Shown: piece by piece, positions 4,999 to 19,697 of the stretch
How positions within the stretch are numbered: position 1 is the stretch's first letter
How the letters are laid out: every line of letters starts with the position of its first letter
Source: a virus
UHGV virus genome: UHGV-1888586
Direction: 5' to 3' (one strand)
Length of the DNA: 20,217 nucleotides
Made by a program: the position numbers and the translations under genes
The notes under the pieces: generated by a model
What the model was told of the DNA's origin: nothing
What the model saw: only the letters and a program-made list of their open reading frames with translations
The model's database searches: none

Positions 4999-5265
4999 AT
5001 GTACAGCAAATACGATGAGGCGCAGTTTCACTTGAGACTTCCGCATGAACTCCACGCGAAAATTAAGCAGCGTGCGAAGATGAATAACAGATCGCTGAAC
5101 TCAGAGATAATTGCAGCGATTGAAGAATCGTTGGCTAAACAAAGCTCTGCATCCGTTTACATTGACGATGCAGAGCGTATGGCAGAACAACAATCTGATA
5201 TGGTTAAGAAAATGGTTTTTGAAACGCTTAAGACCATGTATAGCAATAATAAAAAGGAAACATAG
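4999..5265 (+). CDS. mnt: Mnt-like ribbon-helix-helix repressor (Arc/MetJ superfamily)
   Basis: 88 aa from the ATG at 4999; the track ORF starts at 4966. Clear similarity to P22 Mnt over the whole length: QFHLRLPHELHAKIKQRAKMNNRSLNSEI versus P22 HFNFRMPMEVREKLKFRAEANGRSMNSEL, and C-terminal DAERMAEQQSDMVKKMVFETLK versus DAERLADEQSELVKKMVFDTLK. Confidence 0.85.
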   Translation: MYSKYDEAQFHLRLPHELHAKIKQRAKMNNRSLNSEIIAAIEESLAKQSSASVYIDDAERMAEQQSDMVKKMVFETLKTMYSNNKKET

Positions 5266-5911: not shown

Positions 5912-7909
5912 CTATTCTGACAACGCATCAGACTTAGCCCCCTGCGTCAGAGCGTTAATTGCCTTTTGTGCCTGCTGCATTGCTTTCTCAAAGGCTGTTG
6001 ATCCGCGTGGGGTGTTTGCCATTCGGAGCATTGCATTTCTGAATGGCTCGCTCTCATATGCGCGAGTAAGAAGTCCGTAGCTTACTGCTGCGCCAGTTGT
6101 CGCCGGGTTCATTGCTGTCCCATATCCGATAATGAACGGGATGGTTTGCTGCCCTGTTGGTGTTGTTACTGCCGCTTTTGCAGCCTGCTGCGTGGATTGC
6201 AGGTAGTTTTTCAATCCTTTCAGATAAGCAGCGTCCTGCCCCTTAAATGTGATGCCAGTCTGGTTTTGCAGGATGTTAAGCTGTCGAAGGAACTGGTCAG
6301 GGGATCCTCCAGATTTCTCCATCGCCTTTCCAATGATGCCATTGCGCATTTGCGCCCTGCCAACACGACCAACTGAGTTATACAGCGTCTTAATTTCAGA
6401 TTTGTTCTTGCTGAATAGCATGTTGTTGACAACTTCCGGCGTCAGGTCGCCTTTCATGAGAACATTCTTCAGCCTGGTATTCTTTAGTTTCGCCGCTTCG
6501 TCAGCGTAGACGGCATTGGCCTGCTGATATTTACGGAGAGTATCGTTGCCAAGATTCTGACCAATGGCACCATTGATATCGTCTGTCATCGCCTTGTAAA
6601 CGCGCTGAATGGCGGCATCGGAACGGTTTGGTAACACTGGTCGCTCACCCTTCACGTCCATTCTGAACTGGCTGCGCAGATCGCTTAATTGCTTCAAATC
6701 CAGATTTACCGGACCATCAGGACCAGCATTGCGAACAAGCTCATCACGATAGGACTGAAGTTTTGAAATAGTCTCGTTATCGGCGACCTTACCAAGCTTC
6801 TGCAGGTTAGATATTTCTGTATCAATCTGCTGAATTGCTCGAGCAGGCTGGATATTGACTCCCGCCATTGCATTCTGAACCTGCTCAAGACGGTTCCCTG
6901 CAGCACGACGAATTCCTGATGTTTTCGCTTTAAGGCTGTCAATAACAACAGCTGGATCATACTCACCGAATTTATCAGCAAATCTCTGCACCAACTGGCT
7001 TCTCGCTTCCTGTTGCGTTGCTCTCATCCCGCTTGTGCCAGCCAGGGGGATATTTTCCGCTGTCGTCTGCGCCATTTTCCCGACGCGGGAAGTAGGCTGT
7101 AACAGGTCTGTGGTGTGCAGAGGAACTCCTTCACGCTCTGCAAATCTGATAGCCTGCTGCGCTTCTGGCGCAATAGCACCACGAACGCCACGATAAGCAG
7201 CACCTAACCCACGTCCGGCAGCGTTAATAGCACCGCCAGCCAGCACACCAACGCCTAAATCGGTAGCAAGTGCTTCCGCATCATCTTTCATACTGTTTGC
7301 AGCAAGTGATCCAACTGCGTTTTCTGCGAGAAGGCGAGTTGCCCCCTGAGCAATTCGACCAGCAAGTGTTGGTGCCTGTACCGCCGCTCTCTCAACGCCA
7401 GAAGGAGTGAGGTAAGGCAATGCCTCAGCAAATACCCTGCCCTCTGTAGTTTGTGGAGTCAGCGCGCCTTGCTGAAGGCCAAAGTCCTGCTCTAATCCCT
7501 GCGTTGTTACTCGTGGCGCTGGTTGATATGTACCATCACCAATGCCGAGTTTACCGCCAGCCCAAGCCGCCGCACTTGTTACAGCATCGGCAACTGATGC
7601 AGGTATGTTTGCCACGTTCACGCCAGCCTGCACCAGTCCGCGACCAGTCTCTCTTACTGCTTCGCCAAGATCAGACATAAATCCACTTTGCTGTGGTTGT
7701 TGCTGTGCTAATGGTTGTTGTGTCTCCACTGGCTGCACAGATGGCAATGGATAGGCAGCATAGAAAGCTTGCTTAGCCTGCTCTGCATTTTCTCCGGCTT
7801 GCGGGGCCACGACTTCATTGAAGTATTGCTCCTGAGCCTGCGCTTTTTGTTCTGGTGCTAACGCCTGATACTGTGGAGAGGCGATAACATCTTTCCATGC
7901 TTTAGCCAT
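5912..7909 (-). CDS. Ejection (DNA transfer) protein, P22 gp16-like
   Basis: 665 aa, last gene of the 7-20-16 ejection trio, Gln/Ala-rich composition; start codon overlaps the gp20-like stop. Called mainly on synteny and size (P22 gp16 about 609 aa). Confidence 0.75.
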   Translation of the reverse strand: MAKAWKDVIASPQYQALAPEQKAQAQEQYFNEVVAPQAGENAEQAKQAFYAAYPLPSVQPVETQQPLAQQQPQQSGFMSDLGEAVRETGRGLVQAGVNVANIPASVADAVTSAAAWAGGKLGIGDGTYQPAPRVTTQGLEQDFGLQQGALTPQTTEGRVFAEALPYLTPSGVERAAVQAPTLAGRIAQGATRLLAENAVGSLAANSMKDDAEALATDLGVGVLAGGAINAAGRGLGAAYRGVRGAIAPEAQQAIRFAEREGVPLHTTDLLQPTSRVGKMAQTTAENIPLAGTSGMRATQQEARSQLVQRFADKFGEYDPAVVIDSLKAKTSGIRRAAGNRLEQVQNAMAGVNIQPARAIQQIDTEISNLQKLGKVADNETISKLQSYRDELVRNAGPDGPVNLDLKQLSDLRSQFRMDVKGERPVLPNRSDAAIQRVYKAMTDDINGAIGQNLGNDTLRKYQQANAVYADEAAKLKNTRLKNVLMKGDLTPEVVNNMLFSKNKSEIKTLYNSVGRVGRAQMRNGIIGKAMEKSGGSPDQFLRQLNILQNQTGITFKGQDAAYLKGLKNYLQSTQQAAKAAVTTPTGQQTIPFIIGYGTAMNPATTGAAVSYGLLTRAYESEPFRNAMLRMANTPRGSTAFEKAMQQAQKAINALTQGAKSDALSE

Positions 7910-11158: not shown

Positions 11159-12576
11159 TACTCAATCCTTATCTGGCAGCCAGACAGAGTGACAGGTGAC
11201 TTCGTGATAACGCGCAATTTGAAGCCGACATTTTTCCTGATGCGCCCTACTCGCTTCCACAAAACGCGTTTGTCGTAAACGAACGGTTCATTCTGCTCAA
11301 TCATCTGCTCACGTCCGTAATTGATGCCGTCAGTGGTTGCAGAGAGGAACAGGCGGTCAGCGTACTGCGCAACTCCAGTTGACGATTCAACTTCAAGGTC
11401 GAAAACTCTGGCGTTATTCGCTTTGAACAACGGAGTAAACAGCAGGTGCTCCTGTTGCTTGTCGTACTGGCTGCTGATATCGAACTGCAATTTCCCGGTA
11501 ACCGATTCCAGCTTATCGCCGCACGTTATCTGATTGCCTTCGTAAATGAAGTCGATAGCGCGGTACACATCGTCATACAAGCCAGTTTTCAGCACACACC
11601 ATTGCGGACCATTGGCGCTTGAAGATGCGTCGTACACAAGGACGTGACGCGGAAGATGGATAATCAGCAACTCATGCGCATCAAATCGCAAAGACTCCAT
11701 CACACCATCAGCCAGTTCATCAGCAGTGTAGGAGCGGAGTATTTTCTCAATGCTCGCGCTGGCGATTGGTGACACCTGACCGGAGCCGATGATGTATACA
11801 GATGGCGCACCAGTTGCCGGATTGCTGATAAACGCATACGAATCAGCGAATGGCGTTTTGCAGTAAGTTCCGGCAATGCCTTTCTGCACCATCAGCGATG
11901 GTTGTGCAACATACAAAGCGGCACCAACGGTGGTTGCACCTGTCAGGGAAAAATATTCAATAGTCGATGAACCAAAGCAGACAATGAAGTCTCGCCATGT
12001 TCCGATTCCGATGATTCCGTCCGGCTGCGATTCTGCCCGATATTGTGCGCTGTAGCGGTCAGGATGCGATTCGTCTCCAAGGTCAGTGATAAACCATGAA
12101 TCAGTTCCGTCTTTTGACCACGCATAACGCCCACGTAAGCGCGTAATGTCGCGAACCGAACCTAACTCATACTGCGTGAATCCGCTGTCTGTAGGCCAGT
12201 TTGAGACGGTTTTAACCGTGCCATCATAACGATACTCTACCAGTTGACCATTAACGCCTACAGCCTGAGATGTCCGACCATGCGCCATTGATACACGACC
12301 ACTTCCAGCGACGTCACCGACTTCGCTTTCGCCTTTGTAGAGCTTGCCGCCACACACGCGATAAACAGCACTCTGCGCCATGTTGTACTCGACGCCGCGA
12401 GATACACCATTCACATCAGAACGTTTGGCAATGCCCGGGAATGAGCGAAGATATCCGCTGCTGTTGAGGATTTCTTTGGGTGTAGCCAGCATATTCACTG
12501 GAAGATAGTCGATATAGTCGGCGTTTCGAAAGTCTTTGCCGACACCTTTCATAAGCGGAAGTTGCTGAATCGGCAT
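11158..12576 (-). CDS. Head completion / tail accessory protein, P22 gp10-like
   Basis: 472 aa, the same length as P22 gp10, in the conserved 4-10-26 order; start overlaps the gp4-like stop. Confidence 0.82.
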
Positions 12577-13076
12577 TATTCGCTCCCGTTATCGCAAGGT
12601 TCCTTTCGGTGGAAGTAATTCCAACCGTTCCACTTCGCCAACTGGTTACCGCTACCAACAGGCATACGGTTTGGATAACCGGACTTACATTTAGCGGCTT
12701 TTGCTCTGTCCATTGCAGACAGTTTGACGAGTCGCTCTTTCCCGTATCTGGCAGTGGTTATAAGTTTTGCAGGCGCTTCCAGCGCATAATCCGGTGCAAT
12801 GCGGCAGGCAAGGTTGAAAATAACAGCATTGATAGCGTTATTTGATAAACCGTGCTCATCGCCCGGATCCGGAGCAACATCTGCATCAGCAAAAATGTAG
12901 CCAACGTTGATACCAGGTGACGCATCACCGCCAAGCCATTCAGCCATCATCATTTCAAGGTCGTTGACGCCGTCTTCCATAGACTGCGGTTCGACATCTG
13001 TTAACGTGGCATTTGATGCCACACCGAGCTTACGTAATGCCGCAAGAACTAAATCACCCTTCGTTGTCAGGTTCAT
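12576..13076 (-). CDS. Head completion / tail accessory protein, P22 gp4-like
   Basis: 166 aa from the internal ATG at 13076 ([33 protein letters not shown]...); the track ORF extends upstream to 13163. Matches P22 gp4 in sequence and length; the upstream extension overlaps the preceding small ORF and is rejected. Confidence 0.85.
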
Positions 13077-13302
13077 CTGCTGCCGCCTTAGGTTTTCTAC
13101 CAGGCTTTTTACGCTGTTTTTCTTCCGGCTCTGGCTCTGGCTCTGGCTCTGGCTCTGCAACATCCTTCAGAAGATCATCAGGATGTGCAAACCAGCCAGC
13201 ATCCAGATATTCCTGAAGCTCTTCGGCTTTCACGATTTCAAAGTCGTATCCAACGCCTTTCCATTTCTTCATGTCGCCATGACGAAAGATCATGTGTGTC
13301 AT
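13054..13302 (-). CDS. Small protein with an (EP)5 repeat and a basic C-terminal tail, between coat and gene 4
   Basis: 82 aa from the ATG at 13302 with GGAGA 5 nt upstream ([82 protein letters not shown]). The track ORF extends upstream into the coat gene. The 3' end overlaps the gp4 start by 23 nt in another frame. A small hypothetical gene is recalled at this position in Sf6-type genomes; this is unverified. Confidence 0.55.
13128..13157. repeat. Perfect hexanucleotide tandem repeat (GGCTCT)5 encoding (EP)5
   Basis: Five uninterrupted GGCTCT units on the plus strand, read as GAGCCA (Glu-Pro) on the coding minus strand. The unit length is a multiple of 3, so copy-number change would alter linker length but not frame. 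Confidence 0.95.
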
Positions 13303-13314
13303 GCTTGTCTCCAG

Positions 13315-13338
13315 ATAAAAAGGGAGCCGAAGCTCCCT
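13315..13338 (-). terminator. Intrinsic terminator-like hairpin immediately downstream of the coat gene
   Basis: On the minus-strand transcript: AGGGAGC-UUCG-GCUCCCU (7-bp GC-rich stem, UUCG tetraloop; plus-strand 13321-13338) followed by UUUUAU (plus-strand 13315-13320). It starts 8 nt after the coat stop and is directly followed by the RBS of the next ORF. Confidence 0.6.
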
Positions 13339-13345
13339 CTGGTTA

Positions 13346-14641
13346 TCACGCGGTCTGATTAGGCAGACCAACACCAATTGCCTCTGGTCGTACAGCACAT
13401 GCTGAATACCACACAGCAATACGGCACTTACCAGACAGAGTGTTGATATCACCCTGCGTTGCGAAGATGCCGTTAACACCAATACCAGGAATGCTGAAGG
13501 AAGACGTTTTCATGCCAGCAAACAGTTCATGGGTTACCGGGATCGGCTGAGACAGCAGACGGATTGAGTCATCAGCCCAGAACACGTTAGCGGTGGTTGT
13601 TGCCACGTTCAGAACGTTTACCGGAGTGGTATCAGCAAGAGAGGTGTTTACGTTAGCGTAAGCCTTCTCTTCTTTTGTCAGTGACGCGTCATCCAGCGCA
13701 ATCGGCTTCGGCGTGATTTCGATGTGAGTACTATCGATCACACGGGTGATTGAGAAAGTTGCATCATCAGTCAGCACGTTCTTCGCCATCTGAGACAGGA
13801 ATTTCACACCAGTGAAACTGATTTTGTCGCCGCGCTTAAATCCGGTGGTGGAGGATACGGTCACCGTTGCAACACGGTTGTCGACGTTCTCTTTGTTACC
13901 ATCGGTATCAAGGGTGTATGCCTGCGGCTTAAACTTCTGCGCACCAGAAACAGTTACACCAGTAGCGGTTGACTTGGTAACTGCCGGAAGTTTCGGTGAG
14001 CGAAGAATTTCATCAAAGCCAGCAATCTGACGCTGAATAGTACCGTTGTGATACGCGTCTTCAGGAACGCGCCCAAAGATGTCACCATCTACCAGGTTGC
14101 GGCCTGCTTTGCGGTAATCGTCAGGGTTCAGGAAGTAACTGATGCCCATATCGCGGTTTAGCTCACGGGAGAACATCAGGCGCTCTGCATCAGACACAAA
14201 ATCCCAGCCAGACAGGCCAGTAGATGGACCAATTGCGCGGGTATCGTGAACAACAAGTGAGCCCATTTCGGTTGCCTGTTTGGCAATTGCTGACTCAATG
14301 TTATTCGCCAGTTTTTTGGCGGATGCCTGGATGCGGCGACGGTAAGAACGCTCATCACGCAGGTCATCTGCACGAAGCTCGAAGAAATCGTTATCCGGAT
14401 CGCCCATGTTGCATTTCACGGAGAGTTCCAGAATCCCGGTTGCGTTGCCAGTTAAATCCCAGCCAGTCTGGGTTGGCGCTTCCTGCTCAACAGGCATCCA
14501 CACGGTGTTGCTTGAACGTTGCATGGATTCTGCCGGAGGGGTGTATTTTGTCACTTTGGACGCCATTGGCGTCAGGTTCTGGACGGTTTCGATGATTTCA
14601 TCCAGAGCATACGTGACCAGTTGACCTTCATTTAATGCCAT
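13346..14641 (-). CDS. Major capsid (coat) protein, P22 gp5-like (HK97-fold)
   Basis: 431 aa; the N-terminus and most of the length closely match P22 coat protein ([52 protein letters not shown]). ATG overlaps the scaffold stop (TAATG). Confidence 0.95.
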
Positions 14642-19231: not shown

Positions 19232-19697
19232 GGTTGAATAGCTCCTTGATACGAGAGCGCCGCTTATCGCGATCTCCCTTATCAGGTGTCACGTCTTCAA
19301 CTTGCGACTGCTCTTTGAGGCCCAAATCACGGGCGATGATGTTAGCGTTGAGAAGGTCAGCGGCTGCGCCAGAGAATTTCTGGTCGTAGATGATGTCTTC
19401 CGCTCGTGATGTGACGTCAGAAAAACCTTCCATTGACCGGAAGGTTCCCCATGTTTGCCTGGTGATATCAAGGAAGGTGCACAATCCTGAAATAGTCATG
19501 GCTCGCATCTTAGGGACATTAGCCTTAATTATTTCTCCCTGATATGAAAATACCTTACCCTCCCATAGCGGGTTATCATCAGCCCACTCGAAGTATTCAC
19601 AACAAGCAGCCCACAGCGCCTCAGGCGATTCGAATTTAGGATTTCGCCCATGACTACTGCGGGCCTCCCAAAATCGGTTGCCCTTTGGTGCTGCCAT
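19209..19697 (-). CDS. terS: Terminase small subunit, P22 gp3-like
   Basis: 162 aa from the second ATG ([38 protein letters not shown]...), matching the P22 gp3 N-terminus and length. The track ORF begins two codons earlier at 19703, where no SD spacing is possible. Confidence 0.9.

Follow-up and report, generated by a model that had tools for sequence, protein, structure and literature searches.

Hairpins directly past the major capsid gene are on record for several P22-like and lambdoid phages. The P22 record (BK000583) contains a putative 'stem_loop' at 6102-6119, directly past gene 5 and before orf69, and likens its location to those of HK97 and lambda. A terminator is annotated past the coat gene of phage L / ST64T (MW013503, 6366-6390), and the HK97 record (NC_002167) has a putative terminator at 5192-5213, six nucleotides past gp5. 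In lambda the 41-nt gap between E and FI is unannotated; its hairpin TGGCCC-uucg-GGGCCA leads into a U-rich tail, past which comes the RBS of FI. The phage L genome paper gives the role of such hairpins as not known. It suggests that they could partly terminate transcription and so lower the downstream mRNA, or alternatively that they halt transcription begun without gp23/gp24 antitermination (PMC8022706).

In this paper we describe a hairpin past the coat gene of a P22-like E. coli prophage. The window, by which we mean the whole stretch of 20,217 nucleotides that was analysed, holds the virion-assembly half of this prophage (Lederbergvirus, IME10/Louie-type), with its genes on the minus strand. 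An initial annotation, made from the letters of the sequence, had read the hairpin as a partial terminator that raises coat and scaffold transcripts relative to the genes further downstream. Because the phage L genome paper proposes it (PMC8022706), the partial-termination idea is already in print, and the hairpin belongs to a class that is annotated already; it is known and not new.

Results

Genomic context of the hairpin

The coat protein of the window is 72% identical to P22 gene 5 over its full length and 99% identical to IME10 gp5 (both by tblastn). The DNA round the hairpin is 95-98% identical to that of the phages Louie, Dewey, HZ41, APC_JM3.2, IME10 and CurroJimenez, and among 5,426 complete E. 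coli genomes 217 (about 4%) contain the hairpin locus, in prophages; E. coli 2012C-4431 is one of the carriers. The coordinates of the genes and of the hairpin elements are collected in Table 1. On the plus strand of the window, a tRNA-Arg (anticodon CCT, about 102-176) and a 396-aa integrase-sized ORF (302-1492) together look like the attachment end of the prophage.

The hairpin lies in the gap of 43 nt between coat and orf82. Of the 12 junctions between terS and gp16 no other exceeds 13 nt; the rest span -23 to +13 nt. Scaffold and coat share one base (ATGA) with nothing inserted between them; in Louie an HNH endonuclease gene is inserted at this junction on the opposite strand (locus L110, 5058-5585). 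The first essential gene 3' of the hairpin is gp4, which overlaps orf82 by 23 nt.

Table 1. Genes of the virion operon and elements of the post-coat hairpin, in positions of the window
Feature	Position	Strand	Evidence
terS	19703-19209	minus	
terL	19231-17732	minus	
portal	17731-15566	minus	
scaffold	15552-14641	minus	
coat (major capsid), 431 aa, P22 gp5 homologue	13346-14641	minus	ORF list, tblastn
coat stop codon TGA	13348-13346	minus	sequence
spacer UAACCAG, 7 nt, stop codon to 7-bp stem	13339-13345	minus	sequence
RNA hairpin, core and optional outer pairs	13319-13340	minus	folding, scan, covariation
5' arm GGGAGC	13337-13332	minus	sequence
loop UUCG	13331-13328	minus	sequence
3' arm GCUCCC	13327-13322	minus	sequence
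U-rich tract UUUUUAUCU	13313-13321	minus	sequence
Shine-Dalgarno GGAG of orf82	13309-13312	minus	6 nt ahead of ATG
ATG of orf82	13302	minus	sequence
orf82, 82 codons, variable slot between coat and gp4	13054-13302	minus	phrog_1175 E = 4e-37
gp4 head-tail adaptor, 166 aa	12576-13076	minus	phrog_637 E = 2e-66, residues 1-165
over-extended gp4 region	12576-13163 (L001 3639-4244; L004 1539-2126)	minus	
gp10, gp26, gp14, gp7, gp20, gp16, after gp4 in order	12576-5912	minus	

Hairpin anatomy and folding

On the operon strand the coat stop codon is followed by UAACCAG-A-GGGAGC-UUCG-GCUCCC-U-UUUUAUCU-GGAG-ACAAGC-AUG. The stem has a core of six pairs, five of them G-C, and three optional outer pairs (A13338-U13321, G13339-U13320 and A13340-U13319), which gives a total of 7-9 pairs. 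Past the 3' arm the sequence runs U13321-U13317 and then A, U, C, U, and the tail UUUUUAUC has T at 6 of the 8 nucleotides 3' of the GC core. The initial annotation had given a 7-bp stem, a UUCG tetraloop and a U4AU tail, starting 8 nt past the stop codon, and this description is exact when A13338-U13321 is counted as the seventh pair.

The order of elements is the one found in P22 and L, namely a stop codon, a spacer of 5-8 nt, a GC stem, a (U)NCG tetraloop, a U-rich tract, GGAG, a small variable ORF and gp4. The window differs from these phages in detail. Its stem has one extra A-U pair (GGGAGC/GCUCCC versus GGGGC/GCCCC), its U run is unbroken for 5 nt whereas P22 has UUUCUUU, and another member of the family, orf82 (phrog_1175), is the ORF that comes next, in the position of orf69 in P22 and of orf186 in L.

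Folding of the minus strand, which had been suggested as a check, bears the hairpin out: the 28-nt element reaches -14.4 kcal/mol (z = -3.0) and the whole 43-nt gap -16.9 kcal/mol (z = -2.67), and the hairpin is kept in both the MFE and the centroid structures of a 141-nt context. The plus strand folds at -12.2 kcal/mol and lacks the T tail, so that the hairpin is unidirectional and a bidirectional terminator is ruled out. In the MFE of the 43-nt gap an additional lower stem pairs CCAGA (13342-13338) with UCUGG (13315-13311) and covers part of the RBS. Occlusion of the RBS by this lower stem was rejected, the pairing being missing in P22, L, Proteus, Providencia and other relatives, and the stem length of 6-9 bp would exclude an RNase III site.

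Terminator scans

In its anatomy the hairpin corresponds to an intrinsic terminator, with a GC stem, a UUCG loop, a U-rich tract and a noncoding site past a stop codon. We wrote an all-sub-stem scan for this analysis, which scores hairpins with a T tail on either strand of the window. The post-coat hairpin comes first among these sites with -13.7 kcal/mol, and the runner-up has -10.4 kcal/mol. Second on the operon strand is ACCUUCC-ggucaau-GGAAGGU, with UUUUCUGA behind it, a terminator-like hairpin that sits within the coding sequence of terS (19425-19445, minus strand, -10.4 kcal/mol).

A consensus promoter/terminator scan of the window, whose negatives are not to be taken as absence, left the post-coat hairpin unlisted. 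This is likely because its greedy A-T/G-T stem extension takes three of the tail Ts and leaves 4 T. An Rfam search of the window at the gathering score gave no family at the hairpin; only the tRNA, at 102-173, passed.

Conservation and covariation in distant relatives

For a comparison with distant relatives we used 25 P22-type coat loci, which comprise seven named phages (P22, L, Brookers, AH02, Sortsne, Sf101 and Firinga) and 18 prophages. The prophages were drawn from one-genome-per-species contigs and located with a 3-sequence coat alignment; their hosts are Citrobacter, Buttiauxella, Kluyvera, Tatumella, Rahnella, Pantoea, Rosenbergiella, Pseudescherichia, Providencia, Proteus and Morganella. 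In 24 of these 25 loci a GC-rich hairpin separates the coat stop codon from the next RBS, over coat identities of 25-98% and about 15 genera, with Escherichia, Salmonella and Pseudomonas among the hosts. Ralstonia phage Firinga is the only one of the 25 loci in which it is missing. The spacer from stop codon to stem ranges from 2 to 19 nt in this set, and from 2 to 25 nt over the relatives as a whole, and its sequence is not conserved. In nearly all relatives GGAG or GAGG comes 3' of the T tract.

We aligned 23 sequences, nearly all of them enterobacterial, and find that 93.5% of the stem cells pair. Double changes occur at three of the six stem pairs, and pair 12-22, for example, is GC in 15 sequences, AU in 6 and GU in 1. 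When the partner is slid by one column pairing falls to 67-70%, and none of 500 shuffles matches the observed pairing or covariation. The hairpin is conserved with compensatory changes and is therefore a real RNA-level element. On the opposite strand the G-U of pair 12-22 would read C-A and fail to pair, so it is the RNA of the operon strand that is indicated. Of the 23 aligned relatives, 22 have 5 or more T among the 8 nt past the GC core (median 7), while the exact sequence drifts; the tail 3' of the hairpin is weak in Pantoea. The initial annotation of a terminator-type hairpin on the operon strand, directly past the coat gene, thus agrees with sequence, folding and conservation alike.

These data also bear on the possibility that the hairpin arose by chance and has no biological meaning. 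A short GC hairpin with a T tail can arise at random: of 100 shuffles that kept the dinucleotides of the whole window, 3 yield an equally good site anywhere. However, the observed site falls in the one gap of 43 nt and on the strand of the operon, and it is conserved with covariation across about 15 genera, and we consider the chance reading to be effectively refuted by the comparative data.

The search was extended to more diverged coats in IMG/VR. Of 80 loci with Sf6/Sf101-type coats (25% identity), 79 have UGGGGC-uucg-GCCCCA and then UUUUUAUU. Past AH02-type coats (about 30% identity, on environmental contigs) a strong hairpin of -13 to -20 kcal/mol comes right behind the stop codon in 10 of 11 distinct loci. 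The T tract is missing in 4 of these 10 hairpins; such T-less hairpins lie within the first 60 nt past the coat stop codon of L194, L196, L198 and L200/L201, with -17.7 to -20 kcal/mol. This argues that the hairpin by itself may be the selected feature, and it agrees with protection of the 3' end no less well than with termination.

Close relatives and the mosaic joint

In 80 close relatives from IMG/VR, whose coat proteins are 99-100% identical, the stem does not vary at all. Among them the loop differs (UUCG, UUCU, UUUG, UUAG), as does the length of the T run (T4C, T5, T6, T7), and one variant of the tail, found in some E. coli and Shigella prophages, opens with G (GCUCCC-G-UUUUU). Directly 3' of the T tract, two unrelated small ORFs alternate behind near-identical coat genes and hairpin, one of the alternatives beginning MSVMIFQAGGD. 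The joint is seen when L006, L039, L041 and others are compared with L005 and L012 (about 2820-2900 in locus coordinates; 13303-13313 in the window). Since the sequence switches between the two ORFs at this point, a mosaic joint adjoins the hairpin element. In P22, L and Sf101, too, the content of the slot past coat varies.

The position of the joint raises the question whether the palindrome is a DNA-level or evolutionary by-product, a linker at a module boundary which mosaic recombination has kept and which has no function in expression. The exchange of unrelated ORFs behind an identical hairpin and the variable slot in the other phages would fit such a linker. But recombination would require identity of sequence and not of structure, whereas the stems differ by lineage and yet stay paired, including through a G-U that pairs only in RNA of the operon strand. 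The T tract is moreover strand-asymmetric. We find it very improbable that the hairpin is a linker of this kind.

Neighbouring reading frames

The orf82 product matches phrog_1175 over its full length. Its N-terminal part of about 50 aa also matches phrog_3769, a profile of 186 residues; orf186 of L/ST64T is equally long. By eye, the motif of this N-terminal part, M..M.YK.G...W/G, can also be recognised in the post-coat ORF of P22, L, Brookers, Sf101 and AH02. Within orf82 there is a perfect tandem repeat of 6 nt x 5.2 (13127-13157; GAGCCA on the coding strand), which encodes Glu-Pro repeats and gives short megablast matches to unrelated Vibrio, Pantoea, Klebsiella and Microviridae records.

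For gp4 the most likely start is the ATG at 13076, which gives 166 aa; this is based on the match to phrog_637 and on the N-terminus, which we take to resemble that of P22 gp4. The IME10 and Louie records over-extend gp4 to 195-201 aa and leave orf82 out, and the Louie record has a 45-aa ORF annotated across the hairpin.

Discussion

We propose that the hairpin is the IME10/Louie-type counterpart of the stem-loop which closes the terS-terL-portal-scaffold-coat block in P22-like and lambdoid phages, and that it works as a leaky 3'-end-forming element. We regard this identity and this mechanism, taken jointly, as probable. The hairpin would act as RNA, in cis, on the late transcript. RNA polymerase without Q modification, and a minority of the Q-modified polymerase, would release in the U tract. 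On read-through RNA the hairpin would form behind the polymerase and block 3'-to-5' exonucleases after cleavage in the AU-rich stretch downstream. Both routes would lead to mRNA that ends just past coat, and the coat-proximal message would thereby be raised modestly relative to gp4, gp10, gp26 and the ejection genes. The fold, strand, place and covarying conservation of the hairpin are seen in the data; termination, protection of the 3' end and effects on protein ratios are what we infer, and the combination of termination with 3'-end protection, leading to a modest enrichment of the procapsid message, is the reading that we favour.

Judged from its sequence, the signal would be a moderate-to-good terminator for unmodified E. 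coli RNA polymerase. It must be leaky because all essential genes downstream need read-through. The partial terminator of the initial annotation would be plausible as a mechanism, and its interpretation is supported in part, as far as a real and conserved RNA structure is concerned. Q-modified polymerase of lambda ignores intrinsic terminators. Louie, which is 98% identical to the window here, has a Q-like antiterminator ahead of its lysis and head genes, and for this reason the late polymerase is expected to be largely terminator-resistant. By analogy, the fraction of transcripts terminated in late infection may be very small.

The Q-type antitermination of such a close relative would also suit a hairpin that is purely a post-transcriptional stabiliser. 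Nearly all Q-modified polymerase would then read through, and the hairpin would be a barrier to 3' exonucleases that lengthens the life of the procapsid segment; the U tract would be incidental, or an AU-rich cleavage site, or a translation enhancer for the next ORF. It is the hairpin that is the universally conserved part, and the T-less AH02-type hairpins together with the weak tails in E. coli, Shigella and Pantoea show it to be conserved more than the predicted terminator competence. On the other hand, the T-rich composition kept in all but one of the aligned relatives is what selection on termination competence predicts, and the T-less hairpins come from environmental contigs. We think it rather unlikely that stabilisation is the whole explanation.

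The initial annotation had gone further and matched the hairpin to the hundreds-to-tens ratio of copy numbers in the capsid. The gene order speaks against this match. Terminase and portal, which are needed in low copy number, are encoded upstream of the hairpin in the same transcript segment as coat, so the differences in copy number must come mostly from translation, and the claim about virion stoichiometry is overstated. Classic lambda work by Sampson et al. in 1988 reportedly concluded as well that copy-number differences arise mostly at translation.

Translation might also affect the hairpin directly. The coat stop codon lies at a distance of 5-8 nt from the stem. Judging by the size of the ribosome footprint, a ribosome terminating there would reach over the 5' arm, which could keep the hairpin from forming or weaken termination. 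Such damping is unlikely to be a selected feature because the distance from stop codon to stem is not conserved. We tentatively consider, as possible and still doubtful, that the hairpin is primarily a post-transcriptional dosage device, which would protect the 3' end of the procapsid mRNA despite Q-modified read-through and would perhaps be gated by ribosomes. If true, this would account for the distant lineages that keep the hairpin without a U tract, and gating by ribosomes would couple the translation of coat to the downstream message.

A different role would be that of an insulator which is bypassed in the late phase and stops Q-less polymerase, from internal or spurious promoters or from lysogenic read-in, before it reaches the head-completion and ejection genes. 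The phage L authors propose a role of this kind (PMC8022706). The signal looks like an efficient one for polymerase that is unmodified, and four internal promoters have been seen in the capsid cluster of BTP1. In the window, however, the consensus scan (with the same caveat on its negatives) shows nothing like a strong sigma-70 promoter on the minus strand from terS to coat; its sole match in that stretch is a weak one (9/12) inside coat. An insulator leaves unexplained why the site is constantly right past the most abundantly needed gene, and why the placement is the same in the unrelated phages HK97 and lambda. Leaky expression of gp4 and later genes would also have no obvious cost, unlike that of the lysis genes, which are upstream. 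We therefore hold an insulator to be decidedly unlikely as the main role, and prefer the leaky 3'-end-forming element.

We found no transcript 3'-end, coverage or half-life data for the site in the literature on this phage and P22. The accessible part of the P22 small-RNA paper places no RNA at the hairpin site, the nearest one being upstream of gene 5, and the available text of the BTP1 transcriptome papers mentions no 3' end there; the Stx-phage Term-seq paper has tR' only.

The hairpin itself would not surprise a phage specialist, and its chief use is in annotation. The initial annotation had expected an element that a gene-based annotation would miss; this applies to the IME10 and Louie records, which lack the feature, miss orf82 and over-extend gp4, but not to those of P22, L and HK97, which have it. 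In addition, the comparative set with its T-tract-positive, T-tract-negative and G-first variants is a starting point for studies on intra-operon terminators in Q-antiterminated late operons.

The comparison with other known systems can be made at several levels. With HK97 and lambda the window shares a site past the capsid gene in a Q-dependent late operon and the succession of hairpin, tetraloop, U-rich tail and next RBS. The lambda E-FI hairpin has a UUCG loop too, on a 7-bp GC stem, while the stem of HK97 is longer, with 11 bp and -21 kcal/mol. We treat both as positional analogues and not as orthologues, likened by layout alone.

In T7, the leaky and experimentally proven terminator T-phi lies right past capsid gene 10, so that the capsid message exceeds the downstream message. 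Inefficient T7 terminators are described as balancing expression (PMC9163698). T-phi acts on T7 RNA polymerase, however, and not on a host polymerase under Q antitermination, as would be the case for the putative terminator of the window.

REP elements, for example in malEFG, are intercistronic hairpins that stabilise mRNA; they are repeated genome-wide and have no U tract. The hairpin of the window resembles them in being a stable stem-loop 3' of a highly expressed cistron in a polycistronic mRNA, but differs from them in being single-copy and in having the full anatomy of a terminator. Stabilisation of the REP kind would explain the T-less hairpins of the distant relatives.
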